NCBI GenBank assembly: GCA_963796275.1
Contig: CAWCKY010000001.1
Coordinates: 576,001 to 640,000, forward strand
Source: an uncultured Acidobacteriota bacterium
Lineage (GTDB): Bacteria; Acidobacteriota; Blastocatellia; RBC074
DNA: 64,000 bases
Direction of reading: 5' to 3'
The notes under the pieces were generated by a model, which saw only the letters and a list, made by a program, of their open reading frames with translations, did not search any database and was not told where the DNA came from. Made by a program: the position numbers and the translations under genes. The first letter of the stretch is position 1; every line of letters starts with the position of its first letter. Shown here one piece after another: positions 1 to 14,556 of this stretch.

Positions 1-861
1 CGGGAAGAGAAGAGTCGACAGCGCCCAGATGATGCGACCTGTGAGGTAGACGCGTTTGCGATTGAACAACCCCGGCTTACCCTCGATTTCATTTCGCAGA
101 GCATCCCGGACCGTACCCGCTCCGAGAGCCCTTGCCTGTTGGATCAGCGCGGTCCAGTCGCCGTTCACCCCGATAGCTTTAATCGCCTCATCAGTAAAGC
201 TGACTGACCCATGTGAGAGATTCATGGTGACGAAATCGTATTGGGCGGCCGGGGCATACCTTAAAAGTTCGTAGCCGCCTTTTGTGTTGCGGTCCCCCAC
301 CTCGATTAGCACCGAAGCGCTGCGGTTATCGATCTGCGTATTACCGACTCGTTCCCGCTTCGGGATGATTCCCACGATACTGAGTTGAGTCTCGGTCGCT
401 TGATCAAGAAAGACGACCGTCTTCTCCGTGCGTCTTTTTATGGCGCTCTCAAGTTGCTCCCGGAGTCTGGCATCCAATCCACTCCTGCCTATGATAAATA
501 CCTGCTCGGCCGGCACTCGATATTGTTGTTGTAATTGCGACTGAACTTTTGCGACAGTGGCGGCGGCGTTCTCAGCTACCCGCGCCGCATCTATCACACT
601 TCCGATGGGCTCCAGGGACAGCTCGATCATTTCAGAATTTATGAGCCTGATGCCGGATCCGTCTTCGCTATTCGAAATCCGGATTGTTATGGCTTTTATC
701 CCTTCGCCGCTGAGTTCGATGCCGGCGAAGAGTTCCTTGGTTGTGATCGAAGATTGTCCCCCCGCGAACGCCCCCAGGACAGGAAGTATCAAGCTCAGTA
801 TCAGGGCAGTCTCCAGGATTTTACGAACTTTGAAGGCGAAATCACCGATCCGTTGAGTCAT
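1..861 (-). CDS. Secreted Ppx/GppA-like ASKHA-fold protein, 3' end truncated by window edge
   Basis: Absent from the ORF track. Manual translation from ATG 861 stays open to base 1: MTQRIGDFAFKVRKILETALILSLILPVLGAFAG (signal-like) ... FAGIELSGEGIK ... VLIEVGDRNTKGG ... RVYLTGRIIWAL, resembling the three ASKHA phosphate/adenosine motifs. Confidence 0.65.
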   Translation of the reverse strand, partial: MTQRIGDFAFKVRKILETALILSLILPVLGAFAGGQSSITTKELFAGIELSGEGIKAITIRISNSEDGSGIRLINSEMIELSLEPIGSVIDAARVAENAAATVAKVQSQLQQQYRVPAEQVFIIGRSGLDARLREQLESAIKRRTEKTVVFLDQATETQLSIVGIIPKRERVGNTQIDNRSASVLIEVGDRNTKGGYELLRYAPAAQYDFVTMNLSHGSVSFTDEAIKAIGVNGDWTALIQQARALGAGTVRDALRNEIEGKPGLFNRKRVYLTGRIIWALSTLLFP

Positions 862-867
862 AGTCTG

Positions 868-1797
868 CTATTGATTGAATGGATCGAATATCAAGGTCAA
901 GCTGCTCTGAACTTTGACCCGTGCGCCATTGATTCTCGTAGGTTTGAATACCCATTTGCGGATCGCATCCAGTGCCGCGGTGTGCAGCATTGGATGCCCG
1001 CTCACTGCTACTGCTTCGATTACCCGGCCTTCCTCCGAAACGACGAAATGGACCTCGACCGGACCGGAGGCGTTAGCGTTTAGGGCGAAGCGCGGATAAA
1101 CGGGCCTGACCTTCTTTCTGGCGATCCCGCGAATTTCCCCTTCGGTAACCTTTCGTATCGATCTTAGCGGAATTACCAGACTCGGCCTCTCCTCTACCTC
1201 CGCCAAGATGTCCGGATCTAGGGTGATGCCGAAAGAGGCGGGAGTGAAGTAATCGAGATGAGCTGGAATGGCGAGCGAAGGTCGATTCCATGAGAGCTTG
1301 TTGATAGATTCCGAGGAGATTGTTGGAAAGGAATATTCGGGCGACATTTCCGGGGTGACGAAACGTAAATTCTGAGCCAGACGCACCATCTCCGGCAGGG
1401 AGCGCAAGCGGCGAACCTGGTAGAGTTGATTATCGTGTTCAATCACTGCGTGAAAGAATGACGGCGCCCCGGTCACTCCTTTTTTGAATGTTCCGACGGA
1501 GATTGCGACTACTACCTTGTTTCCGTTCGACAGAACAGCATTTGCTTCCGTACACGCAAGCAGGTCTCGATCTGAACCAGGCCGCTCGCCACATTCGGTA
1601 AGCTGCCATAGTATTCCGGCGTCCGGGCCTGTCAAATCCTTAAACCAGTCGGCGAAAGGGCGTTCCGGTAATCCTTGATCGAGCGTCGACGTCGGCATCC
1701 GTTGTACCAGCGAAATTGCTTGCTTCTCGAACGTTATGATCTGAGATGCTCCACTTAACCAGATGAATAAGCCTGTTAGAATAGCTGATATCTTCAT
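868..1797 (-). CDS. TonB C-terminal domain protein with N-terminal signal peptide
   Basis: C-terminal PVYPRFALNANASGPVEVHFVVSEEGRVIEAVAVSGHPMLHTAALDAIRKWVFKP is a TonB_C signature. Confidence 0.85.
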   Translation of the reverse strand: MKISAILTGLFIWLSGASQIITFEKQAISLVQRMPTSTLDQGLPERPFADWFKDLTGPDAGILWQLTECGERPGSDRDLLACTEANAVLSNGNKVVVAISVGTFKKGVTGAPSFFHAVIEHDNQLYQVRRLRSLPEMVRLAQNLRFVTPEMSPEYSFPTISSESINKLSWNRPSLAIPAHLDYFTPASFGITLDPDILAEVEERPSLVIPLRSIRKVTEGEIRGIARKKVRPVYPRFALNANASGPVEVHFVVSEEGRVIEAVAVSGHPMLHTAALDAIRKWVFKPTRINGARVKVQSSLTLIFDPFNQ

Positions 1798-1808
1798 ACC
1801 ACCTTCAT

Positions 1809-2271
1809 TAAAATCAACCTTAAAATCAACCTTAGTTGAATTATCCGCGGTTCAGCGGCATAGGAAATTTGATGCATCGCGGGGTAATCCATCATCTCCG
1901 GAAAAGTGGAACCACCTCGTTGGCTCCGGGAGAATTGATGCGAAAAGGCATCAGATAAGCTATACATTTTGTCGTGGGAAGTCAATGGGTTGCACGTCTC
2001 GCCCGTAAGAACAATTCATTTTCCATTTTCCATTTTTCCCTTTCGAATCAAGTACATTATCAATGGTCGAAGAAAGTGAAAATTGAGATTGGAAATGTTT
2101 TTATCGAAAGGTTATGAGTACAACTAGTATTGACTACCCCGTCATATTAATGATTTACTTGAACCGTAGTAAAATATAAATACTCTCTTGAGTATTTCTT
2201 CTTGAGTATTTCTTAGTGATACTTACCCTGTGCCCCCATCTTCAAAACGAAGTCGAATTTAGAAGTCGAAT
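1809..2271. repeat. Three different short direct duplications in an AT-rich divergent intergenic region
   Basis: TAAAATCAACCT x2 (1809-1832), CTTGAGTATTTCTT x2 (2187-2214), GAAGTCGAAT x2 (2249-2258, 2262-2271). Confidence 0.8.
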
Positions 2272-2419
2272 ATATTGAAATCAGAAGATAGCTTAAGTAT
2301 CGTTGCTATATATATCTCCTTGAATATGTCGACCTGTCCCAGGACGGCGATTCTTCCGTCAAGGTTTGGTAGATTCTTCGATTCCATGTTTCACCCATAA
2401 CTTCTAAGGAGCTGCACCG

Positions 2420-3949
2420 ATGCCCAGAGACAAAGCCAAAAAGATCGAGCCAGAACCCAACAATTTCTCTTCAATAATTCCTATCGAAGATGACAAGAAT
2501 GCGGGTAAGAGCAACAACAAGGTCCTCCCGCTAGGATCCTCCAGGTATGGCTTCAACGTGCTGGATCAGAATGCTAATCGGGAAGGGCGTGGGGAAACGG
2601 GGGAGGCTCCGCCCGAACAGGGTGTGGAAGCGATGTCAGAGATCAAATCACGTGTTGAGGCGGTGCTTTCGCGCATCAAAGCCGAGACTTCCGAGATGGG
2701 ACTCAACGAAGGGCCGGATTATAAGACGGCGGAATTAGTGAAGCCCGCGGAAGTCCGGGTAGAGGCCAGAGTGGATTATCCGCCAGAGCATCAAGGCTCG
2801 GTCACCGGCTCTTTAAGCAACACGGGTCCCCTGGGTACGGGATCCTTAGGCACAGGGCCGTTACTCAAAAGCCTTACGAATGAACTGGAGCGCCGGCGGT
2901 CAGAACTTTTCGCGCAGGTGCGCATCGCGGAAGCCCGAGCGCAGGAGATCGAGGAAAGGTATAGGGAAACGGAGCGCAGGCTCGAACAGGAACTTGCTAT
3001 GCGCCGTACGGCCGAGCAGCGACTCAGGGAATTGGAGGATGAATACCTCCATCGCTTGACGGCCGCGGAAGAAGAGGAATTGAAGCGGCTCGACGCCGAA
3101 TCGGCGCGTGAAAGGGCCGAAGCCCAACTGCGCGAATTTGAAAAACGCGTCAAAGATGCCGAAGACACGATGTTGGTGGAAACCGAAGCGCACGTGCAGA
3201 GCGAGAAGGCGATGAGGGAAGCAGAGGCGAGGGCTGAAGCCGCCTCGCTCGCAGTCGCCGATGCCGAGCGCCGTCGGTCCGAAGCGGAAGCCAGGGCACA
3301 ATCGGCGGAGGATAATGCGCGAGCAATTGAAGGCCTGATAGATGAAGCGGAATCGATCGCGAATGCTGCCAGGGATAGATACAAGAACGCCGAAACCAGG
3401 ATGCAGCAGGAAGTTCAGCTGAGGGGCGAGGCTGAGGAGAAGCTTAAGACGTTAGAAAATGAGCTGAGTTATTATCTGGAAGTTGACTGGAGCAAGGTCG
3501 AGCCCAGATCAGACGACGCAGTGAGCGATCAGGCTGCGACGCACCTCAAATCACAAGTTGAATCGGAGCAGAAGGTGCGTGCGGCCGCCGAGGAAGCTCG
3601 CACGGCTGCCGAAGTCAGGGTTCGCCAGCTGGAAGAAGAGCTCTTCAAGTATGAGGAGAAATACCGCCAGGTGGAGGAGAAGCATCGCCAGGCTGAAGCT
3701 GGTTTCAAGAAGATATTGCGAAAGCAGGAATCGGAATTACGCTCTATGTCGGAGCAGGTCACCCGCGCGAATTCCACAACCACCGATCTTACTCTGGTTA
3801 AATCGCCCGGGAAAAATGACACGCATATAACTATCGCGGCAATGACTCGGAATGCGAAGCTCAAGCTGGTGGGTTACGGCGTCGTAATCTCATTTCTAAT
3901 ATATGGATTAAGCTACCTCGCCTACCAGATAATCATGCAGTTGACATAG
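2420..3949 (+). CDS. Long coiled-coil protein with a single C-terminal transmembrane helix
   Basis: RBS AAGGAG; about 300 aa rich in E/A/R/Q with heptad character; TGSL/TGPL mini-repeats before the coil; C-terminal LVGYGVVISFLIYGLSYLAYQII. Confidence 0.85.
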   Translation: MPRDKAKKIEPEPNNFSSIIPIEDDKNAGKSNNKVLPLGSSRYGFNVLDQNANREGRGETGEAPPEQGVEAMSEIKSRVEAVLSRIKAETSEMGLNEGPDYKTAELVKPAEVRVEARVDYPPEHQGSVTGSLSNTGPLGTGSLGTGPLLKSLTNELERRRSELFAQVRIAEARAQEIEERYRETERRLEQELAMRRTAEQRLRELEDEYLHRLTAAEEEELKRLDAESARERAEAQLREFEKRVKDAEDTMLVETEAHVQSEKAMREAEARAEAASLAVADAERRRSEAEARAQSAEDNARAIEGLIDEAESIANAARDRYKNAETRMQQEVQLRGEAEEKLKTLENELSYYLEVDWSKVEPRSDDAVSDQAATHLKSQVESEQKVRAAAEEARTAAEVRVRQLEEELFKYEEKYRQVEEKHRQAEAGFKKILRKQESELRSMSEQVTRANSTTTDLTLVKSPGKNDTHITIAAMTRNAKLKLVGYGVVISFLIYGLSYLAYQIIMQLT

Positions 3950-4027
3950 GGAAATGTTGATTTAAGACAAATAGGCCCAAATTATCATCTATCGTATCGT
4001 ATATCATCGCCCCCTATCGATCTGAGT

Positions 4028-4606
4028 ATGAAAACACGAAGTACGATTCAGATCCTTTTTACAGCGATCTTGTTCACAGCGGGAGCTCTCTCCACCGCTT
4101 ACTCTCAGGAACCGCTCCCCCCTGATAAGAAGAGAGCATTGCATAGATTCGATCCGGCCGATATTTTTCCTGAAGAGCGAGAATCTACGCGGGGGGCGGG
4201 TAGACGGAGGCAAAGGAGGGAAGGGCCCGCTGCATCCGCGGCTCCCAAGAATCCAGCGCCGTCATCTAACAGGCTGAGGTCGCTAACTCCGGCTCCGACG
4301 CCGCGGGTTTCTGCCGCTAAAGCGAAACCATCTCCGGCTCCTACTTTGGCGCCGACGCCTCAGGTAGAAGCTACGGCGACGAGTACCCCTGAGCTTGCAG
4401 CTACTCCTCAAATCGAGGCTACTCCTCAATTTGATGCGGTGGCGGCTGTCCAATCGTCAGGTATCTCGCCTCAGGTTCCCGGCGGAGATCAAGTTGGCGA
4501 CGGCGATGGGTTTCCCTTGTACTTCCTTCTCCCTATGCTCGGGTTGATTGTATTCGTTTTGATCGCTCTGATAATCAGTCTAAAAAAGCAACTACGTACT
4601 CCCTGA
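4028..4606 (+). CDS. Pro/Ala/Thr-rich exported protein with C-terminal membrane anchor
   Basis: Signal peptide (ILFTAILFTAGALSTAYSQ), PAPT/ATPQ low complexity, C-terminal TM helix followed by basic KKQLR tail. Confidence 0.75.
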   Translation: MKTRSTIQILFTAILFTAGALSTAYSQEPLPPDKKRALHRFDPADIFPEERESTRGAGRRRQRREGPAASAAPKNPAPSSNRLRSLTPAPTPRVSAAKAKPSPAPTLAPTPQVEATATSTPELAATPQIEATPQFDAVAAVQSSGISPQVPGGDQVGDGDGFPLYFLLPMLGLIVFVLIALIISLKKQLRTP

Positions 4607-4988
4607 AGGTAGTTGTAAGATAGTTGTTAGTTAGTAAAGCGAAAAACGCCCTTTAGCAGAAAATAATGTATCCCCCCGATCGCAAGCGAAGAGCTTGCTT
4701 TTTATCACGTTTTTGGTCAAGATTTTGGCAGCGATCAGATCCATGATCATTGTAGTGACCGTAATCACAATTCAGGTCTTTAGGTTTAAGCCAGATACTG
4801 CCAGTCATGTAAACCCCGTGTCACAATCTGGCGTCATGAGGTATAAACCTACCAATCCTTCCAGCGCATAAAGTGATTTCAGTCGCGCGCTCCGTCCGCC
4901 TCACCACATGGACTGGGATTTGATTGAAGAGATGTTTGGTTAACCAATTGGTGCCCGGAACAAAGACATTGATGGGGGATAAAAACTA

Positions 4989-6104
4989 ATGAAGATCAAT
5001 TGTCCGAAATGCCAGTTCGAGAATCAGGCTGATTCGACACGAGTTGTTTGCGCGCGTTGCGCGACGATCATCGAAGTCAGATTAGATCAGGGTTCGAACG
5101 CAGATACCAATGGCAAGCGTCAGACTGCACGGCTGCCCTTTGGCATCAGCTCCGGCAACAATCAAGGGTCGAATAGCCAGCAATTGAATCAGCACCACGA
5201 CGTTTATGCGACACGTCTGGGCGAAGATTTCGATGATGTGCTCGATATCCCGCGCCCGGAACAGCCGAGCTATCAAACGGGTTATGAAACGCCATCTGTT
5301 TATGATGATGTCTTTGCCAGTCCGAGTTATGATTCATCGACGGCATATGATTATTCCTCAAACGATAGAAGGTCGAACCCGGTGGAGACTTTCCGGCCTG
5401 GCGCGTCACGGCAACGGGAGACGCAGGATTACATCAACGAGGCGGAGCCAGAGTTTATGGGTTGGCCTGTTCTGCCGGACGATTCGAAGGGTGCGGAAGG
5501 CGGCGAGCGAGTCTCTTCGAGCCGCGACGGCGTCTTAACCAGAATTGTGGCAACGGTCCTCATCTTCGGTGTGCTGGTCTCAGTCGCCTACTATTTCGTC
5601 AGCCTTCGAAAACCCGATGTCAAAGCTGCCAACAAAGCGCCTGCGACATCGACAGCGGCGGGCAGCGAAACGCAGAAGACCACCGATGTGGCATCAAATG
5701 CGGGAGCGGGAGAGGAAGCCAAGTCGGAACTCGCGACAGAAGCGCGATCCGAAGCTGAATCGCGCAATCCGGGCGAGGCTGTGTCTGTCCCCCCTGCTCC
5801 GGAGACTACTTCCAGCAATGTCACGCGGAGTCCGAGTCCTTCCATCCCCGTGATACCAAACAATGGCGAATTTACTATCCAGATCGCTTCCTTCAGCGAT
5901 CAGGTTCAAGCAAATGACCGCGCCGCGAGTCTACGACCTGCCGGCATCTCGGGTGGCAGCGTAGTCAGGGTTGATTTACCGAATATCGGCGTCCGTTATC
6001 GCGTCTATGTCGGCGGATTCGCGAGCAGGGAAGAGGCTGCGGGCGTTGCGCTGCAACTCAGGGCCAAAAACATAATTCAGGAATACCTAATAACAAGGAG
6101 ATAG
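4989..6104 (+). CDS. Zinc-ribbon / TM / SPOR domain protein
   Basis: N-terminal CPKC...CARC, one TM helix, C-terminal FTIQIASF...RYRVYVGGFASREEA SPOR motif. Confidence 0.9.
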   Translation: MKINCPKCQFENQADSTRVVCARCATIIEVRLDQGSNADTNGKRQTARLPFGISSGNNQGSNSQQLNQHHDVYATRLGEDFDDVLDIPRPEQPSYQTGYETPSVYDDVFASPSYDSSTAYDYSSNDRRSNPVETFRPGASRQRETQDYINEAEPEFMGWPVLPDDSKGAEGGERVSSSRDGVLTRIVATVLIFGVLVSVAYYFVSLRKPDVKAANKAPATSTAAGSETQKTTDVASNAGAGEEAKSELATEARSEAESRNPGEAVSVPPAPETTSSNVTRSPSPSIPVIPNNGEFTIQIASFSDQVQANDRAASLRPAGISGGSVVRVDLPNIGVRYRVYVGGFASREEAAGVALQLRAKNIIQEYLITRR

Positions 6105-6197
6105 ATTCAGGATCGAATCGTTTCCTATTGCCGCATAGGTATATTTAGGTTACAGTAACCGGAACTTACGATTTTTTACCTTGAGAAGAGTTGAATC

Positions 6198-7787
6198 TTG
6201 AAGACTGAGATTATCGGTTTACAAGGCCAGCGAATATCGAAAGAGCAGGCGACGGTGAGAAGGATCAGTCCTGACCGGGCTCAGGTCTACGTGAAGATCG
6301 TCGAGCGGTATGCGATGCTTTTCGATAGGCCGGAAGTGCGCCTTCGCTTTCTCAATAACATGATCGCCAAGCAGGTTGTCCGGCAGAAGAAGCTGCAGCA
6401 CGCTCTTCGCCACTTTCGGTTTGTCGAGCGGACGCGGCTGTATGATATCCTGCTGGATGTTCGGTTTTATCGGTCGATCATGGAGGAACTGAGCGCATCG
6501 GCCGGGGCTGTCCCCATTCACCGCAGCAAGTATTTCCGTAACATCAGAATCCCCCTGACCGCCCGCACTGGGTTCTTCTGCTATCAATTCAGACATGCAA
6601 TCTACGGTACAGGCCTTATGCTTGCACTTCTCATGGTGTTCGGCATGTACTCGCTCGTCGGCTGGTCGGTCGGTCGGGTAGATAAATTGCTGGCCAAATA
6701 CTATCGACCCGGCTCATCCGAGGTCTTAAGGCAGGGCGAGGCGGCAGCAATGGTACGGCCACCGCGCCCAAAGGAAGCGGAGAAGACACCGGCCAAGCTC
6801 GAAAAGGTCTGGTTTCTCGATAAGAAGGGTAATATCGAGAGATGGAGTAACCGAGCCAGGATTCGAACCGAATTCGAGACTGAAAACCGCCCGCGCAGAT
6901 TCTACGCGATACCACGGGGCTCAGATACTGCCCCCGATAGATTACGATCTGACATCGTAGGTATCGTATATCACACTTCAGAAAGCCATATAGTTCCTTA
7001 CGATCCTGGTTATAGCGAGGATATAGTGAGAAGCTCGCGGGGTGTGATCAATTACATTCGAAACAACAAGCTGTATAACTATCTTATCGACCGGAGCGGC
7101 GATATCTATCGCATAGTCCGGGATGAGCACGCAGCCAATCACTCTGGCCATTCCATCTGGGCGGACAGTAATTATGCGTACGTCGGGTTGAATGAGAGTT
7201 TCATAGGGATATGTTTTGAATCGACGGTTAACGCCGATTCCAAAGAGATATTGACTGAGCCGCAGATCTTAAGCGGGAAAGAATTGACCGACGTGCTGCG
7301 CAACAAATACAATATCGATGATGCGAATTGCACAACGCACGGTCTCGTCTCGATCAAACCGGAACGAATGCTCGTTGCTTTCCATCACGATTGGGTTCGC
7401 GACTTCCCATTTGAAGCTATGGGGTTATCCGACAAATACAAGGTTCCTCCGCCCAACATCAGCGATTATGGGTTCACCTATGACGATGAGATATTGGCGA
7501 AGCTAAATGGTAAGTTGTGGGAGGGTGCGATTATCGCTGAAGCTGAATTCAAAAAACGGGCAGAGCAAGCCATCATCGACCCTCAGATTCTGCGCGAAAA
7601 TTTGCGTGACCGCTATTTGACTCAGTATTATGCACAGTTCAACAAATCGCCGATAGATAAGATCAGTTTTACCAGCGAAGAACCTCAAGATAAAACCAGT
7701 GGCCCGTCTTTCATCACACGATCAGCTTCTAGCAAGATGATCGTGGGATCATCCCGGAAAACCAAACCCGGCCGACGCCGGCGTTAA
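6198..7787 (+). CDS. Membrane-anchored N-acetylmuramoyl-L-alanine amidase (Amidase_2/PGRP-like)
   Basis: GIVYHTSE, YNYLIDRSGDIYRIV, ANHSG, NESFIGICFE, TTHG motifs; TM helix near aa 135-155; start codon uncertain (TTG). Confidence 0.85.
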   Translation: MKTEIIGLQGQRISKEQATVRRISPDRAQVYVKIVERYAMLFDRPEVRLRFLNNMIAKQVVRQKKLQHALRHFRFVERTRLYDILLDVRFYRSIMEELSASAGAVPIHRSKYFRNIRIPLTARTGFFCYQFRHAIYGTGLMLALLMVFGMYSLVGWSVGRVDKLLAKYYRPGSSEVLRQGEAAAMVRPPRPKEAEKTPAKLEKVWFLDKKGNIERWSNRARIRTEFETENRPRRFYAIPRGSDTAPDRLRSDIVGIVYHTSESHIVPYDPGYSEDIVRSSRGVINYIRNNKLYNYLIDRSGDIYRIVRDEHAANHSGHSIWADSNYAYVGLNESFIGICFESTVNADSKEILTEPQILSGKELTDVLRNKYNIDDANCTTHGLVSIKPERMLVAFHHDWVRDFPFEAMGLSDKYKVPPPNISDYGFTYDDEILAKLNGKLWEGAIIAEAEFKKRAEQAIIDPQILRENLRDRYLTQYYAQFNKSPIDKISFTSEEPQDKTSGPSFITRSASSKMIVGSSRKTKPGRRRR

Positions 7788-7972
7788 TAACAGATTACAC
7801 AGCGTATCCGTAGAAAGCAGAAATGAAATTGCAGAAGAAATAGCCGTCACGCCAAATTCGAAGCTTTTTCACCTCGCAGTGCCCTCTTGCCGGCCATTCT
7901 GAATCTGTTTCCAGCATCTGCATTCTGAATAAACAATTCACAAATAAATAGATAGATCCGATATGGAGGAAT

Positions 7973-9010
7973 ATGGAAGAGAATAAGACAATGACGGTGA
8001 CGGTCGAAAAGGAGGTCGACGGTCCCGAGGTAGGGGCAGTGGGGCTAGATGTCGGCACCAGCCGCGTTGTCATGGCCGGTGGTCAGAGCGGACATAAGGC
8101 AGTAACTCAGCTCAATGCATTCGTCGGAGTCCCATACTCAAAGATGACTGAGGCCATCTTGCAGCAGAACAAGATGGTATACCATCGTAATGGGAAGGCG
8201 CTTTTCATCTTCGGTAACGACTCTGAGCGGTTTGCGAGCTTCTTCAATGCCGTCGCTCGCCGCCCTATGCAACATGGCGTACTCAATCCGCAGGAACCGA
8301 TGGGACAGCAGATCATTCAGGCGATCATCGAATCAATTGTCCCGCGCGGGCGTAAAAATCAGTTGCTTTGTTTTAGCACCCCAGGCAAAGGCGAGGGGGC
8401 GGACGCCAATCTCGTCTATCACGAAGCCGTCCTGAGAAATTTCCTGAACACCCTGGGATATGACTCGAAAGCAGTCAATGAAGGTCTGGCGGTTGTATTT
8501 GCCGAACTGCAGAACGAGAATTTCACGGGCATTGGAATAAGCTGCGGTGGCGGCATGTGTAACGTCTGCGTTGCTTTTCTTTCCGTCCCGATGTTAACTT
8601 TCAGCATCCCGATCGCCGGCGATTACATAGACTCGAGCGTTGCGGCGGTTGTTGACGAACCGGTCACGCGCGTCCGTTTGATCAAGGAAGAAGCGCTCGA
8701 TCTATCGCGCCAGCCCAGAGACAAAGTGACGAGCGCTCTGCAGATTTATTACGAGGAAGTGATCAATACTCTCGTCAGCAAACTGCGCGAGGAGTTCGAA
8801 AACTCCCGCCAATTGCCCAAGATCGACCGGGCGATGCCTGTCGTCCTTTCCGGAGGCACTGCCAAACCGCGCGGATTTCTGCAGAAATTCGAGACGGCGA
8901 TCAGAGCGGGCGGTTTCCCGGTACAGATCTCCGATGTTCGGATGGCCAGCGATCCGCTCACAGCAACGGCTCGCGGATGTTATATAGCCGCGATGTCGGA
9001 AGTCAGATGA
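7973..9010 (+). CDS. Actin-like ATPase, volactin/Mad28-like subfamily
   Basis: Actin-fold motifs VGLDVGTS, NEGLAV, GIGISCGGGMCNV, AGDYID, VLSGGTAKP, TARG; RBS GGAGG. Subfamily assignment from recalled similarity. Confidence 0.85.
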   Translation: MEENKTMTVTVEKEVDGPEVGAVGLDVGTSRVVMAGGQSGHKAVTQLNAFVGVPYSKMTEAILQQNKMVYHRNGKALFIFGNDSERFASFFNAVARRPMQHGVLNPQEPMGQQIIQAIIESIVPRGRKNQLLCFSTPGKGEGADANLVYHEAVLRNFLNTLGYDSKAVNEGLAVVFAELQNENFTGIGISCGGGMCNVCVAFLSVPMLTFSIPIAGDYIDSSVAAVVDEPVTRVRLIKEEALDLSRQPRDKVTSALQIYYEEVINTLVSKLREEFENSRQLPKIDRAMPVVLSGGTAKPRGFLQKFETAIRAGGFPVQISDVRMASDPLTATARGCYIAAMSEVR

Positions 9011-9015
9011 TCGAA

Positions 9016-9087
9016 TGCGGATTGCGGATATCAGCGTGAGCAATAAGTTGAGTCGTAAAGATCGATTCGACGAATCCGCAATCCGCA
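9016..9087. repeat. Inverted heptamer doublet forming an intergenic hairpin
   Basis: TGCGGAT x2 at 9016-9029 pairs with ATCCGCA x2 at 9074-9087. Confidence 0.75.
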
Positions 9088-9101
9088 GCTCATAATATAG
9101 A

Positions 9102-11183
9102 ATGGCCCCGTTCGATCCATTCGCCTTCTTATTTTTACCGCCAACCTCGGCGCCCGCATCTCTTTCTCCGTTCAATATCCTTGAGCTCGTAGGATTCGCA
9201 ACCGGCGCTTCTCTCTATCTATATCTTTGCTGGATGCTCTTTCAGCGATATGGCATTCGCCGCGTGGAGCGCTCCCTACTGGCTCTGGGTTTGAGCATCG
9301 GTTTGTGGCATCTGGGAAACTTTGCCGAATCGATTTACCTCCTGCTGATCGGCGCCAGAAGCGGGTTATGGTGGTTGAAATCGGCCAATGTCGTCTCCTA
9401 TGTCGCGCTCGCTTTTTTGCCTCCCACCCTCGCGCATGCTCATTTCAGGGTGTGGAAATGGTTCGACAAACGCGTTCCCACCCAGTTATTCAGGACACTG
9501 ATCATACTGGGATATTTGCCGCTCTTGATTCTCCCCTGGGTCGTGGCCAGGCTCTGGGATGATCCATATGAAGAGCCGATCCGAAAACTGTCTTTTCTTT
9601 TACTTCCATTTATCTTCTGGATCATCTTTATCTTCTTTGAATGCGCCGTGATCGATTGGCGGCTGGCTGCTAAATTGCAATCCGAGCGCGAGCGTAGATT
9701 TTTCGAAGTGTTCGGCGCTTCGCTCGTAATAATCGGCGGCCTGTTCCTGCTCACTTACGTCTTCGGTGCGAGGAACTGGGAGGTGCTCGGAAAATATCTC
9801 GATTTGATCGCGCGGCTCTCATCGATCGCGCCCGCGACAATAGTCGCTTATTACATCTATCGATATCGCTATCTGGAACTCGTTATCCGGCAGAGCTTCG
9901 TCTATGCGATTCTGGCGGCGATCATCATGATGGTCTACATCAACGGGATCCGCCGGTTGAGCATACTGCTCGAGGGGAATTACGGCGTACGCGCTGATGT
10001 CATCGAAGCTTTGCTGATCCTGGTCGTCATGTTTCTTGCGGGACCGCTGCGGCGCTTGACTGAGGGTTATCTGCAGCGGCTCTTCGCGCGCGAGGTGGGG
10101 CTGTATCGCGAACTTGTACCACAGGTCGGCCGTGCTGCTGCGAGCTATGGTGAGCTTGATCGTTTCGTCCAATTCGCCGAGAGAAGATTATCCGATGCAC
10201 TGGAACTGGTTGACGTGCGCATTATTCCCACCAATCTGGCAAGGAATGAGACCGCAGATGTGTGCCGCATAGCCGAGGAGCGGCAGCTAGCCGAGATCGA
10301 AGACAGATCGTTGCTCGGCCGTCTGGATGCGATTGCCGGATATTCGCTCTGGCGCGAAGGTCGCATAGTCGGTCTTATGATAGTAAAAGGCGAACCGCAA
10401 AGTTTGACTCCTGAAAAGCGGGAGGTGCTTGCGGTCCTGGCCGGACACATAGCCGTGGCCATAGAGAACTGTCAGCTTCTCGAAGAGAAAGTAAAACTGG
10501 AGCGCGAGCTGGCAGAGCGCGAACGTCTGGCATCGCTCGGCCAGATGGCGGCTACCGTCGCACACGAGATCAAAAACCCGCTCAGCGCGATCAAATCGAT
10601 CGCCCAGGTGATGCGCGAAGATGAAGGCGTGAGCCGCGAATATGGCCATGATCTGGACCTGATCACAGGTGAAGTTGACCGCCTCAATCGCACCGTATCG
10701 CAACTTCTCAGTTTTTCCCGTCCTGCCGCCGTTGCCTCTACCTCCGCTAGTCTCCGCGAAGTGGTTGAGAGCGTTCTCGCCATCACCCGCAACGAGGCCG
10801 AAGAGCGCAATATCAGAGTAACCATAAATCTTACGGCCGATCCGGACTTCGACGGCGAGACAGCCGCAGTGATCAAAGAGATCCTTCTCAATCTGGTCTT
10901 CAATGCTGCTCAGGCGATAAATCGCGAAGGCGAGGTAAACATTGAAAGCGAATTCAATGGCAGTAACCAATTGCATGTCTCCGTCACCGACGATGGAATC
11001 GGAATTCCGCTCTCTCTGCAAGAGAAAATATTTGAACCATTCTTTACGACCAAGCAGCGCGGTACAGGCCTGGGCCTGGCAATCGTCGCGAGGCGCACAA
11101 ACGAAATTAATGGGACAATCGATCTGAGCAGCCCGGTGCTTGAAGGACACGGCACGAGGTTTGATCTGAATTTCCCGGTATGA
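9102..11183 (+). CDS. Multi-TM sensor histidine kinase (PrsK-like architecture)
   Basis: About 8-9 TM helices, GAF-like segment, H-box AHEIKNPL, N-box LNLVFNA, DDGIGI, PFFTTK, GTGLGL. Confidence 0.93.
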   Translation: MAPFDPFAFLFLPPTSAPASLSPFNILELVGFATGASLYLYLCWMLFQRYGIRRVERSLLALGLSIGLWHLGNFAESIYLLLIGARSGLWWLKSANVVSYVALAFLPPTLAHAHFRVWKWFDKRVPTQLFRTLIILGYLPLLILPWVVARLWDDPYEEPIRKLSFLLLPFIFWIIFIFFECAVIDWRLAAKLQSERERRFFEVFGASLVIIGGLFLLTYVFGARNWEVLGKYLDLIARLSSIAPATIVAYYIYRYRYLELVIRQSFVYAILAAIIMMVYINGIRRLSILLEGNYGVRADVIEALLILVVMFLAGPLRRLTEGYLQRLFAREVGLYRELVPQVGRAAASYGELDRFVQFAERRLSDALELVDVRIIPTNLARNETADVCRIAEERQLAEIEDRSLLGRLDAIAGYSLWREGRIVGLMIVKGEPQSLTPEKREVLAVLAGHIAVAIENCQLLEEKVKLERELAERERLASLGQMAATVAHEIKNPLSAIKSIAQVMREDEGVSREYGHDLDLITGEVDRLNRTVSQLLSFSRPAAVASTSASLREVVESVLAITRNEAEERNIRVTINLTADPDFDGETAAVIKEILLNLVFNAAQAINREGEVNIESEFNGSNQLHVSVTDDGIGIPLSLQEKIFEPFFTTKQRGTGLGLAIVARRTNEINGTIDLSSPVLEGHGTRFDLNFPV

Positions 11184-11185
11184 AT

Positions 11186-11245
11186 AGTTTTCAGTTTTCA
11201 GTTGCTGAATTAGACCGTCCGACTGAAAACTGAAAACTGAAAACT
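11186..11245. repeat. Inverted heptamer arrays (CAGTTTT / ACTGAAA) forming an intergenic hairpin
   Basis: AGTTTTCAGTTTTCAGT (11186-11202) versus ACTGAAA x3 (11222-11245). Confidence 0.8.
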
Positions 11246-11270
11246 GTTGCGAAAGTGAGCTAGAGGAATT

Positions 11271-12731
11271 ATGGCGGATCTGAAAATCCTGATCGTTGAC
11301 GATGAAGAGGCAGCGCGATACGGAATGGTCCGCGCGCTCAAAAATTACGCGGTCCTTGAAGCGGCGAGCGTGGAAGAGGCGCGAAGAGAGGTCACCCGAG
11401 TTCGCCCGGCCTTGATCCTGCTGGACATCAATTTGCCCGGAGCGAGCGGGCTTGAATACCTGCGAGAGCTTGCGGCCACCATCGATGCGCCCCCCGTCGT
11501 AATGGTCACGGCGCACGGTTCAGAGCGCACAGCCGTCGAAGCTATCAAGGCGGGAGCTTACGATTACCTGGCAAAGCCATTTGAGGTCGATGAGTTGAGG
11601 CTCGTGGTAAAGAACGCGCTCGAAGCATCCAAACTCCGGCACGAAAACCAAAAGCTTCGAGCCGAACTCAAATCTGTGCGCGGGGCGGGCGAACTGCTGG
11701 GCGCCACCGAACGGATGCGGCGGATATACGATCTGATTGCCAAAGTCGCGATGACCGATGTGACGGTTTTGATTGCCGGAGAATCGGGCACCGGGAAAGA
11801 ACTCGTCGCGCGCGCCATCCACGACGAGAGCGCTCACCGACGCAACGGGGATTTCATCGCGATGAACTGTGCCGCATTACCCACGGAACTTATCGAGTCT
11901 GAGCTCTTCGGCCACGAAAAGGGCGCATTCACAGGGGCCGCGGGACAGCGGAAGGGGAAGTTTGAGCTGGCTCAAGGCGGCACGATCTTCCTCGATGAAA
12001 TCGGCGATATGAGCCTCAATACGCAAGCCAAGTTACTTCGGGTGTTGGAGGAGCGGAGAATCGAACGTCTCGGAGGTTCGCATTCGATCCCGGTCGACGT
12101 GCGCATCATCAGCGCCACCAACCGGGATTTGGCTTCGTCAGTGGCATCCGAAAAATTCCGCGCAGATCTTTTCTATCGCCTGCGCGTCGTAGAAATAAAT
12201 CTGCCACCCTTGCGCGAACGGAGTGAGGATATTCCGCTGCTCGCCGAAAATTTTCTCGCGATCTATGCCGGTAAGTACCGACTCAGTTGCGTAGAAGTCA
12301 GCGCGGAAGCGATGAAGATGCTCGTCCGGTACGAGTGGCCAGGCAATGTTCGCGAACTCCGCAATGTCATCGAACGAAGCGCGGTACTCTGCGACGGAAA
12401 GTCGCTGCGCGCGGATGACCTGCCGGAAGAGATAAGAGCAAACCGGCAAGCGGAAAGGTCTTCCGATAATTTCTGCCGCGCTTTCCCAACCGCCGCGAAT
12501 GAGGCGATAGAGTCCATGCAAATTCCATATCTCGCCGATTTTCGCGAGGCCCGGCGGGAATTTGAGCGCGCATATATCGAACGCGTATTGAAAGACACGG
12601 GGGGAAATGTGACGCGCGCTGCCGAAAGAGTCGGGATGCACCGCCAGAGCCTGCAGCAAAAACTGAAAGACCTTGGCCTCACGCGCCGCTACGTGGTGAA
12701 CGAAGAGGTGCAGGAATCGGATGACGAGTGA
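11271..12731 (+). CDS. Sigma54-dependent response regulator (NtrC/AtoC family)
   Basis: Receiver domain (LIVDDE, LLDINLP), [28 protein letters not shown], Fis-type HTH. Confidence 0.95.
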
Positions 12732-12979
12732 AAGATTTGGATGGCAGGCAAAGGTAAAGGGAGCTAATAGCTTTAGCGGTTTTTCATCTGCAATATAGGG
12801 ATGGCGTGGAGTTGGGAGTGCAGTAGCCCGGGAAGCCGCTGGGCAACTCATTTTGGACAGCGAATCAGCCCGCTGGCGGAAGCGTGCGTGGCTCTCGCAA
12901 AGGAGTTATTACGGGAGTAACGCTCGCTGCCGCTTACGGTTCTTCAGGTATAATTTCCTATCTACGATCGCAGTATTTA

Positions 12980-12996
12980 TTGGCACTCAGGTTGCA
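12980..12996 (+). promoter_or_regulatory. Sigma54 (-24/-12) promoter
   Basis: TTGGCAC-TCAGG-TTGCA is an exact match to TGGCAC-N5-TTGC, about 125 bp upstream of the CDS at 13120. Confidence 0.8.
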
Positions 12997-13119
12997 GCTG
13001 ATACGGCTGCAACCGTTGAGGACATTTGGATCTTGCGCCAAAACCGTCAGTGTTCAGTTAAGGTATGGTCTGCTGAATTGCCGGCGATTTTGGCGCAAGA
13101 ATTTTAAAGATAGATAACT

Positions 13120-14556
13120 ATGAAACTGAAAATATGGCGGCGTTCGATCCTGCCCATTTATCTCATTGTTTGCTTTACGATATTGCCGCTCAACGCGTGG
13201 CTCGAGACTCTATTTCATTCATCGATAACTCCAAACCATCTCATTCTAGTACTCGATGGGGTGCCTTACAAAACAATCGTCGAATTGCGCGCTGAAGGGC
13301 GTTTTTCGTACTTTCGCGATCCAGCACGGATGATCTCGACCTTTCCTTCATTGACTAATCCGGCGATGATCGAGATTTTGCAGACCGAGGATTCGCCGGG
13401 TTATGAGGATCATTACTACGACAAAACCCGCAATCGTCTGTTGGGTAATGTTCAAAATCGTCTGCAAGGCGAGAGATTCATTCAAGGTACATTTCGGGAA
13501 ACATTTGACTATCATGCCCCGGCTTTCAAGGGAGCATTGGCGTATGTCGCGGCTCCGATGGGCGCCATAGCAGTGGCTCAAATGGACCTGGCGGCTTTCC
13601 GCTCAGCCTTCCGGAGATCGAAGGCTCCCGTCTTCATTGGCTATATCGGTGAGACCGACACGCTGGCGCATTTGGGCGGAGAGCGTGCATTGAAACAGTT
13701 TTTGCGCACGCTCGACCGCGCGATCGAAGAATTCATCGCGGAATCGGAGGAGGATGGCGTGCGCCTGGAAGTGGAGATGTTCTCTGACCACGGCAACAAC
13801 TACGCGGAATACCGTCAGGTGAAATTGAACGACGCGATCAATCAGTCTGGGTTCGTGACTGAAAAAATGATAACGAGTGAACGAAGCGTTGTTTTGCCGA
13901 AATACGGTCTGGTCGGCTCATCGATGCTCTTTACCGCAAGTGAGAATCGGGCGCGTTTGGCCGATGTTTGCGCGGGAGTTGAGGGCGTCGATTTTGCCGT
14001 ATATCAATCGGGCGCCGATGTCATCGAACTATTGAGCAAGCGAGGGCGCGCGCGTGTGGTGCGCGACGGTGAAAATTACAAATACGAAGACCACGGCGGC
14101 GACCCGCTGGGACTCAACGACATTATGGGAGCGATGAAGGTTTGCGGTGTGATGGATAGTCAGGGGTTTGCGTCACGCGAAGATTGGTGGTGGGCGACGC
14201 GTCCACACCGTTATGCCGATCCGCTTCGACGCCTGTTCGATGGTTTCGAGAGGCATGTCAGAAATCGAGCCGATGTGATCGTCAGTTATAAAGACGGTTA
14301 TCAGCTGGGGAGCACTTTCCTGGGCTTCTTTGCGCGATTGCAGGCAACCCACGGCAATATGTTGCGGGGAGAGACCGAAGCCTTCGCTATGTCGACGCGC
14401 CAATCTCTCGGAGATTCGGTGAGAGGTTACGAATTGCGCCGCCTCTTTGGGATCGGCGATCAGCGGTCAAAGGTTGATAAATATTTCAGCGGCGGCGGGC
14501 ATTGCCGGATCGGGCCGGCGATCGCCAAGCGATTTGCGGAGATACCGGAACAGTAG
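13120..14556 (+). CDS. Alkaline phosphatase superfamily / type I phosphodiesterase-like protein
   Basis: LVLDGV, STFPSLTNP, ETDTLAHLGG, FSDHG and ATHG metal-binding motifs; N-terminal hydrophobic helix. Confidence 0.85.
   Translation: MKLKIWRRSILPIYLIVCFTILPLNAWLETLFHSSITPNHLILVLDGVPYKTIVELRAEGRFSYFRDPARMISTFPSLTNPAMIEILQTEDSPGYEDHYYDKTRNRLLGNVQNRLQGERFIQGTFRETFDYHAPAFKGALAYVAAPMGAIAVAQMDLAAFRSAFRRSKAPVFIGYIGETDTLAHLGGERALKQFLRTLDRAIEEFIAESEEDGVRLEVEMFSDHGNNYAEYRQVKLNDAINQSGFVTEKMITSERSVVLPKYGLVGSSMLFTASENRARLADVCAGVEGVDFAVYQSGADVIELLSKRGRARVVRDGENYKYEDHGGDPLGLNDIMGAMKVCGVMDSQGFASREDWWWATRPHRYADPLRRLFDGFERHVRNRADVIVSYKDGYQLGSTFLGFFARLQATHGNMLRGETEAFAMSTRQSLGDSVRGYELRRLFGIGDQRSKVDKYFSGGGHCRIGPAIAKRFAEIPEQ

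Follow-up and report, generated by a model that had tools for sequence, protein, structure and literature searches.

A Volactin-family actin gene paired with a membrane-anchored amidase gene in Acidobacteriota: a candidate link between cytoskeleton and cell wall

In a stretch of 64,000 nt from an uncultured Acidobacteriota bacterium of the class Blastocatellia (contig CAWCKY010000001.1; the whole stretch is called the window here), a gene for an actin-fold protein of the Volactin family (P0005, 345 amino acids (aa), 7973–9010, + strand) follows a gene for a membrane-anchored amidase (P0004, 529 aa, 6198–7787, +) and, further upstream, a gene for a SPOR-domain protein (P0003, 371 aa, 4989–6104, +). 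The neighbourhood of amidase and actin gene is kept in two classes of the phylum, and a direct contact with the actin is predicted for a conserved motif near the amidase's N-terminus. We consider it fairly probable that the actin binds, and so positions or gates, a periplasmic peptidoglycan amidase, and that the SPOR protein joins them in the Blastocatellia. Bacterial actins guide wall synthesis (MreB) and organise division (FtsA), but we know of no earlier description of an actin that is linked to a wall hydrolase directly and in a genetically hard-wired manner. The Volactin family itself has, as far as we know, been studied in one archaeon alone, which has no peptidoglycan. The family is nevertheless large, as 1182 representative clusters in a library of 1.84 billion representatives matched it at E≤1e-3, and 343 at E≤1e-30. 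The cassette described here would be the first concrete candidate partner for this family, with an interface predicted at the level of residues. It gives a function to explore in the Acidobacteriota, a phylum that is abundant in soil but has hardly been studied in its cell biology, and points to a mode of directing wall remodelling that has not been described so far.

Conservation of the amidase–actin gene pair

P0005 matches the Pfam model Volactin (PF25216) with 262.4 bits (E 9.3e-78, profile positions 3–321 of 321, cut-off 35), and a six-frame search of the genome with this model returned the same result. It stays below the Pfam cut-offs for MreB_Mbl (25.3 bits, cut-off 27) and FtsA (18.6 bits, cut-off 31.8) and below those of NCBIfam for MreB (TIGR00904, 23.4 bits, cut-off 365.75), FtsA (TIGR01174, 15.9 bits, cut-off 175.85) and MamK (NF040964, 31.2 bits, cut-off 400); the salactin model of NCBIfam also leaves it far under the cut-off. 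When the whole genome was searched with PilM_2, the FtsA gene was the sole match and no separate PilM was found. In a quick maximum-likelihood tree of 91 rows, a branch of 3.14 divides the 84 family rows from the genome's own MreB, MreB-like and FtsA proteins (SH-like approximate likelihood ratio test 84, below the mark of 95). P0005 lies in a 38-row clade with 100% support, together with a second Blastocatellia family, Bryobacterales and forms fused to a Zn ribbon. Five representatives in the tree are strongly acidic: four stand in a 15-row clade separate from the 41-row clade to which P0005 belongs, whereas the fifth, P0138, stands inside the 38-row clade; from their composition these acidic proteins are probably haloarchaeal. 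By the scores, the tree and the PilM_2 search, P0005 is thus a Volactin-family protein and not MreB, FtsA or PilM, as an initial annotation made from the window's sequence had proposed. The source names of its closest homologs agree with a placement in Acidobacteriota, class Blastocatellia; these homologs are annotated merely as 'FtsA domain-containing', 'actin-like ATPase' or hypothetical.

The three motifs quoted in that annotation were all recovered in P0005 and agree with the family consensus: RRPMQHGVL at residues 96–104, YHE at 149–151 and TGIGISCGGGMCNVC at 185–199. The phosphate-2 motif lies within the last of these (8525–8569, +), phosphate-1 is GLDVGTS (8042–8062, +) and the adenosine motif is LSGGTA (8846–8863, +). 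The AlphaFold2 (AF2) model shows a complete actin fold (predicted local distance difference test (pLDDT) 89.6, predicted template-modelling score 0.87). Its nearest solved folds are MamK (template-modelling scores 0.70/0.73), BeeR (0.71/0.70) and MreB (0.67), at no more than 19% identity, and a profile search likewise returned MamK (52 bits, E 5e-13), MreB (37 bits) and BeeR (34 bits) as the nearest solved chains. In sequence and model the N-terminus is acidic and disordered, and there is no C-terminal amphipathic tail. Since P0005 has no membrane-binding helix of its own, a membrane adaptor is plausible.

About 12 kb around the actin gene were compared in 20 relatives from the Blastocatellia, among them three loci of the second family. 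An amidase homolog stands directly upstream of the actin gene in all 20 loci (tblastn), including those of the second family, in which the actin is merely 54–55% identical to P0005; every one of the 18 amidase open reading frames (ORFs) submitted to Pfam carries Amidase_2. The SPOR protein was found by tblastn in 17 of the 20 loci. By Pfam, the ORF upstream of the amidase gene has a SPOR domain in 19, and the ORF of the twentieth locus aligns with the rest, so the proposed association of the actin with a SPOR gene extends throughout the Blastocatellia. The histidine kinase gene downstream is kept in 14 of 20 loci, the gene for a Pro-rich protein further upstream in one and that for a coiled-coil protein in none (tblastn). 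As amidase and SPOR gene are present in 20 of 20 loci and the last two genes are not kept, the unit in the Blastocatellia consists of the SPOR gene, the amidase gene and the actin gene.

Outside the class, one genome per species was scanned with the family alignment, and the best 80 of 573 confirmed stretches were analysed, nearly all from Bryobacterales (class Terriglobia). A P0004 homolog (27–41% identical) lies directly upstream of the actin gene in 77 of these 80 loci. For 32 of 74 pairs the start of the longest actin ORF is located –8 to +12 nt from the amidase stop, with 12 starts at –4 and eight at –1; in 41 of the 74 the longest actin ORF begins further upstream and does not define the size of the gap. 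The flanking genes vary from locus to locus (sulfatase, sigma factor, SDR, YdjC), and no SPOR domain was found in the 30 neighbouring proteins scanned from 15 loci. As the flanks change and the pair stays, only the amidase–actin pair is kept. When 301 genomes sampled evenly over the phylum were searched, 10 had a Volactin match at E≤1e-20; the gene is therefore patchy. Five further loci came from this sample, three with a co-oriented amidase gene directly upstream and one with a divergent one about 1.5 kb away. The co-occurrence of actin and amidase expected from the initial annotation thus holds across two classes of Acidobacteriota (20/20, 77/80 and 4/5 loci). Judged by gene order, the ancient unit is the amidase–actin pair, and the SPOR gene is an addition of the Blastocatellia.

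Within the class, the Volactin model matched in 23 of the 24 genomes from the family to which the window belongs, the genome without a match being 78% complete, in three of three genomes of the second family and in none of 13 genomes from five other families. The tallies over 40 relatives (Volactin, MreB, Amidase_3) include one unpublished genome, G004, without which 23/24 becomes 22/23. Among 14 control genomes only Haloferax volcanii had a match at E≤1e-20.

The initial annotation had described five co-oriented genes at 2420–9010 (+) as one module. The genes themselves stand, as do the domain calls, which agree with translations and Pfam, and the gaps of 382 bp (4607–4988) and 185 bp (7788–7972), which follow from the ORF coordinates; the interpretation is only partly supported. 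The first gene (P0001, 509 aa, 2420–3949, +) encodes a tail-anchored coiled-coil protein with a long charged helical region and a C-terminal hydrophobic segment at residues 483–506, for which no Pfam family matched. The second (P0002, 192 aa, 4028–4606, +) encodes a Pro-rich membrane protein with a hydrophobic N-terminus (residues 7–26), a Pro/Ala-rich middle and a further hydrophobic segment (164–185). The distribution of these two genes speaks against a module of five. Furthermore, in a locus from the same genus (L040, about 660–4560 as oriented) four ORFs of 399, 182, 315 and 247 aa intervene between the Pro-rich homolog and the SPOR gene, and these are not at the corresponding place in the window. 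A terminator-like hairpin followed by a T-run lies 3' of the Pro-rich gene at 4682–4698 (+) and probably marks the upstream boundary of the module; it comes from a consensus scan for sigma-70 promoters and terminators whose counts were below those of shuffled sequences, so that single sites are hints.

The amidase, its predicted contact with the actin and the SPOR protein

P0004 matches Amidase_2 (PF01510) with 47.2 bits (cut-off 26). Its AF2 model (pLDDT 82.6) consists of a helical domain (residues 27–114), a long helix (120–168), a disordered linker and a well-folded domain (200–488). The hydrophobic segment 135–159 (6600–6674, +), a hydropathy peak inside the long helix, is the candidate transmembrane helix, and the protein would accordingly be oriented with its N-terminus inside and its C-terminus outside. 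Foldseek returned 51 chains at E≤1e-3, all those listed being Amidase_2 or peptidoglycan recognition proteins (PGRPs), with AmpD, LysC, AmpDh2, AmiD and endolysin amidases as the best matches. A look-up of residues 1–170 in the ESM Atlas gave no usable match.

Conservation was read from an alignment of 58 homologs from two classes, the Blastocatellia and the class of the Bryobacterales. Invariant are W205, H259, E262, Y293, D298, H315, H381, H396 and D398, and E341 is conserved in at least 90%. The catalytic core extends from GIVYHTSES (with H259 and E262) to HHDW (with H396 and D398) at 6960–7394 (+). From what is known of AmpD and T7 lysozyme, we take H259, H381 and D398 to be the zinc ligands and Y293 and E341 to be catalytic; in a profile search H381 was aligned with the zinc histidine in 'vaHaDI' of AmiD. 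By these residues the enzyme looks intact. AmiD, AmpDh2 and AmpD share fold and catalytic positions with P0004, but they are lipoproteins or soluble, whereas P0004 has a 130-residue, presumably cytoplasmic, helical domain and a transmembrane helix. It also has an insertion that separates the second His from the Asp, and its C-terminal extension of about 90 residues is conserved.

The helical domain contains the predicted actin-binding motif (residues 29–57, 6282–6368, +), which was defined by conservation and complex prediction. Among the 58 sequences of both classes L49 is invariant, and A39, P45, R48 and L52 are conserved in at least 90%. When actin residues 18–345 and amidase residues 1–132 were submitted as alignments, the predicted complex scored 0.84, against 0.00 for the best of three controls; the pass mark is reached by 58 of 80 solved complexes and by 2 of 110 mismatched pairs, figures which apply only roughly here because the alignments were our own. 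At least 76% of the contacts are common to the runs, and the partner's pLDDT is 64 or higher. On the amidase, the predicted interface comprises residues 29, 32, 35–36, 39–40, 45–50, 52–53 and 56–57, all of which belong to the conserved motif. On the actin it comprises residues 176, 180, 183–184, 203–205, 285 and 338–344, which map to the helix connecting subdomains IA and IIA (176–184), the first hairpin of IIA (203–205) and the C-terminal helix (338–344). A complex with the cytoplasmic N-terminus of the amidase had been suggested as a check of the initial annotation, and its outcome supports direct binding of actin and amidase as a predicted contact.

Solved structures of actin-fold proteins with a partner helix in the cleft include ParM–ParR, PilM–PilN and actin–WH2. 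In the first two a short terminal peptide or helix lies in the cleft near the IA/IIA junction, and the interface predicted for P0004 and P0005 is alike; ParR is a DNA-binding adaptor and PilN a pilus alignment protein, whereas P0004 is a putative wall hydrolase. When 95 amidase-linked actin sequences were compared with 81 from unlinked clades, the interface positions 176, 180, 183 and 339 differed systematically. Since the linked and unlinked groups are also clades, this difference is not independent evidence.

In P0003 the SPOR domain (PF05036, 52.2 bits, cut-off 21) occupies residues 292–368 (about 5862–6092, +). The N-terminus has a Zn ribbon of the form CxxC...CxxC at residues 5–24 (5001–5060, +), whose cysteines C5, C8, C21 and C24 are invariant in 21 sequences; an acidic motif (5199–5255, +), a motif preceding the membrane segment (5445–5480, +) and the hydrophobic, putative transmembrane segment 183–206 (5535–5606, +) follow. 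With a short cytoplasmic part, a transmembrane segment, a linker rich in Pro and the SPOR domain at its C-terminus, P0003 recalls FtsN. The FtsN model TIGR02223 gave 20.6 bits (cut-off 107.65), so that the likeness is one of domain layout only. A Rosetta-stone link between the ribbon of P0003 and the Zn_ribbon_4 domains that are fused to Volactin in other proteins was dropped as too weak: in a comparison of the P0003-family profile with one such fusion, 32 ribbon columns were aligned with a probability of 8% and E 0.004.

In the second Blastocatellia family a gene with a PilZ domain (57–64 bits) is located directly upstream of the SPOR gene (L036:7497–7856, – strand; L037:4661–5074, +; L038:4756–5154, +), which hints at an input of cyclic di-GMP to the module there. 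In three other loci a small membrane protein is encoded in its place.

Proposed mechanism and alternative explanations

According to the mechanism we propose, the cytoplasmic Volactin-family actin would bind a membrane protein with a single transmembrane pass, by way of a short conserved helix-turn-helix motif at the cytoplasmic N-terminus of this partner; the partner's periplasmic part would act as a zinc N-acetylmuramoyl-L-alanine amidase. The actin would thus reach the membrane via its partner, and the position, clustering or activity of the amidase would follow the actin, so that the removal of stem peptides from peptidoglycan would be confined to sites set by the actin. In the Blastocatellia the SPOR domain of the FtsN-like protein would bind the denuded glycan made by the amidase and mark or reinforce the site. 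The cellular role would most likely be daughter-cell separation or local wall remodelling. A much bolder extension, which we regard as possible but rather doubtful, would add the system, as a third wall machine based on an actin, to the elongasome of MreB and the divisome of FtsA: tips of Volactin filaments would hold the tail of the amidase and decide where peptidoglycan is stripped, the machine would have taken over septum splitting in the window's family, and denuded glycan would feed back on the actin through the SPOR/Zn-ribbon protein.

Parts of this arrangement have counterparts. In the Escherichia coli divisome the actin-fold protein FtsA binds the cytoplasmic N-terminus of the bitopic FtsN, whose SPOR domain reads glycan denuded by AmiA/B/C. 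Differently from there, P0005 is not FtsA, a real FtsA is encoded elsewhere in the genome, and P0004 belongs to Amidase_2 instead of Amidase_3 (the AmiA/B/C type), is membrane-anchored and has a predicted direct contact with the actin. The MreB–RodZ elongasome couples an actin to wall enzymes, and in Bacillus subtilis the actin paralog MreBH governs where the hydrolase LytE acts; here the actin belongs to another family, and P0004 is bitopic with predicted direct binding, whereas LytE is secreted. The closest comparison for the actin itself is volactin (VolA, HVO_2015) of H. volcanii, which shares Pfam family and signature motifs with P0005. Its host is archaeal and without peptidoglycan, hence without an amidase or SPOR partner. 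Volactin is reported to have a role in cell shape and to form dynamic filaments in vivo whose tips touch the membrane (PMC10869688); such contacts would be compatible with a partner bound in a cleft that is exposed at the filament end. The literature searched contained no description of bacterial Volactin-family proteins or of an actin–amidase cassette; Supplementary Note 5 and Fig. 8 of the volactin paper lay outside this search and may mention bacterial homologs.

The initial annotation had called the system alternative. In the sense of a replacement for MreB or FtsA this is ruled out, as the genome has a canonical MreB (507.5 bits) and a canonical FtsA (419.6 bits), and MreB was found in 41 of 41 related genomes, with or without a Volactin-type gene. 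The Volactin-type actin is therefore an addition. Three MreB-like paralogs coexist with MreB and the Volactin–amidase system. In the order of their bits to TIGR00904, all under its cut-off, they are C6:2864317–2865279 (308 bits), C3:1430950–1431909 (286 bits) and C4:457672–458619 (239 bits); similar paralogs recur in relatives.

At E≤1e-10 the genome encodes nine SPOR proteins and three Amidase_2 proteins, P0004 and two others, and no Amidase_3 protein. Within the window's family, 5 of 24 relatives have an Amidase_3 match, all of them weaker or shorter than in other families. The cassette may explain how genomes without a detected Amidase_3 still make denuded glycan for many SPOR proteins.

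A number of points weigh against a general or direct steering of the amidase by the actin. A clean complementarity with Amidase_3 was not found, since one family of the class (f6) has both, and a second (f7, 0/3) and most of a third (f3, 1/4) have neither. Three of the 80 Bryobacterales loci have no amidase gene, two of them being second copies beside a paired copy in the same assembly, and one of the five loci from the phylum sample has none either. In a sister subclade, represented by 79 metagenome loci, many of them with short flanks, a P0004 homolog lies within the locus in only four; thus the pairing is a feature of a clade and not of the family. The complex score is the model's own confidence, to which likeness to solved actin–peptide complexes may add, and the location of the interface in the cleft was deduced from secondary structure instead of coordinates. 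Likewise, D398 was taken as third zinc ligand from alignment and secondary structure. Finally, amidase and actin genes had no cover in the one ribonucleic acid (RNA) library available, which proves nothing either way.

Four other explanations were weighed against actin-directed placing or gating of the amidase. The actin-fold protein might form no filaments and act as a nucleotide-switched adaptor that turns the amidase on or off without positioning it. Such a function would match the pattern of PilM–PilN and FtsA–FtsN, for the predicted contact joins one actin monomer to the terminal motif of a bitopic partner, and filament contacts of actins use the same region, so that binding and polymerisation could exclude each other. 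We hold it to be rather unlikely, because the nearest solved folds, MamK, BeeR and MreB, are those of filament formers, the identity of P0005 across genera (80–90%) would be typical of proteins that polymerise, and the founding member of the family is reported to form dynamic filaments in vivo (PMC10869688). Less probable again is an amidase-like domain that serves as wall anchor or muropeptide sensor, with the real task of the actin elsewhere, for instance in positioning DNA or cargo. Many Amidase_2 and PGRP proteins do no more than bind peptidoglycan, and the fold matches of P0004 include PGRP-SA, -SD and -LE. Elsewhere in the Volactin family, members carry a fused ParB-HTH, HU or ParA-like domain or are encoded next to ParA-like genes, which hints at roles related to DNA in those clades. 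Against a pure anchor or sensor, the putative zinc-ligand and catalytic positions that non-catalytic PGRPs typically lose are invariant in the 58 sequences from two classes, and a SPOR partner fits an enzyme that yields denuded glycan.

That the genes are neighbours by inherited order alone, without a functional link, appears very improbable. In its favour, gene order is common to related genomes, the majority of the loci belong to just two clades, and the downstream histidine kinase gene is also kept although it probably serves another gene. Yet the pair persists in Blastocatellia and Bryobacterales with entirely different flanks, the stop of one gene overlaps or adjoins the start of the next in many loci, and the complex prediction passes where its controls score 0.00. 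Hardly any weight is given to a phage or mobile module for lysis or defence, made up of an endolysin-type amidase and a phage actin. The matches of P0004 to endolysin and amidase families of PHROGs are weak (26 and 21 bits), PHROGs has no family for the actin or the SPOR protein, and PADLOC none for any of the five proteins. Furthermore, no phage genes were seen alongside, the GC content is ordinary (0.46–0.58 across the region), the chromosomal context is stable across genera and the actin tree follows taxonomic groups.

Coding evidence, flanking genes and other family members

Two DNA sequencing runs contain relatives 90–95% identical to the window, with contigs that bridge the amidase and actin genes. 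Insertions and deletions within genes are multiples of three (–6 at 5644, +3 at 7652), those in the spacers are of 1–2 nt (6140/6141, 7820, 7927 and 7972), and of the best-supported substitutions listed for the amidase gene 30 of 37 are at third codon positions. By this pattern the genes are real coding sequence under selection. The insertion directly after 7972 and another one at 6140/6141 limit the starts of the actin gene and of the amidase gene, the latter of which begins with TTG. In the RNA library, which was available as contigs, two contigs are identical to 5308–5458 and 5860–6061, both within the SPOR gene.

The neighbours scanned within 1–14556 are genes for a TonB_C protein, a histidine kinase, a sigma-54 (NtrC-type) response regulator and a Phosphodiest-family protein; mreC/mreD, ftsZ and magnetosome genes are not among them, as previously noted. 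A perfect sigma-54 –24/–12 element (TGGCAC-N5-TTGC) is located at 12981–12995 (+), between the ORFs 11271–12731 and 13120–14556, 3' of the NtrC-type regulator gene and 5' of the Phosphodiest-family ORF at 13120. Altogether 56 sigma-54 matches occur in the window, which equals the chance expectation. The pair of kinase and NtrC-type regulator probably controls the ORF at 13120 and not the module. Sigma-54 control of the module was rejected, as no match with up to two mismatches was found on the + strand upstream of its three genes.

The actin had also been likened to Mad28 of magnetotactic bacteria, which is compared here by its description only. In the phosphate-2 motif, Mad28 is reported to carry Ser in place of the Asp of MamK (PMC10653835), and P0005 has Ser there, too (GISCGGG). 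MamK is the nearest solved relative of P0005 by profile and fold, yet P0005 is far below the MamK cut-off of NCBIfam. In contrast to the magnetosome clusters that hold Mad28, the surroundings of P0005 are SPOR, amidase, histidine kinase, NtrC-type regulator and TonB_C genes. The available parts of the Mad28 literature do not mention volactin or Acidobacteria.

In the sister subclade, where amidase genes are rare, the neighbours are ParA/MinD-like ATPases, coiled-coil proteins and AAA_22 ATPases. Four of these loci (L167, L171, L180 and L195) have the Volactin-type gene beside a ParA/MinD-like ATPase gene and a conserved ORF of 142 residues without a Pfam family. Tandem Volactin paralogs occur in L144 and L152, and a class A penicillin-binding protein is encoded upstream in L171. 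Evidently, as far as gene neighbourhoods tell, the partners of the Volactin family differ from clade to clade.

All 47 long family representatives scanned (among P0128–P0275) are members of PF25216. In some of them the Volactin domain is fused to Zn_ribbon_4 (three cases), ParB-HTH (four), HU, a receiver domain, a Wzz/GNVR/ParA-like kinase or a PRC barrel (one each), and four of the 47 have inteins inside the actin domain. One protein, P0252 (494 aa), combines Amidase_2 (residues 35–124) with the first half of a Volactin domain (291–474); it probably arose from two abutting genes joined by a frameshift on a short contig and would then be a further case of their adjacency.

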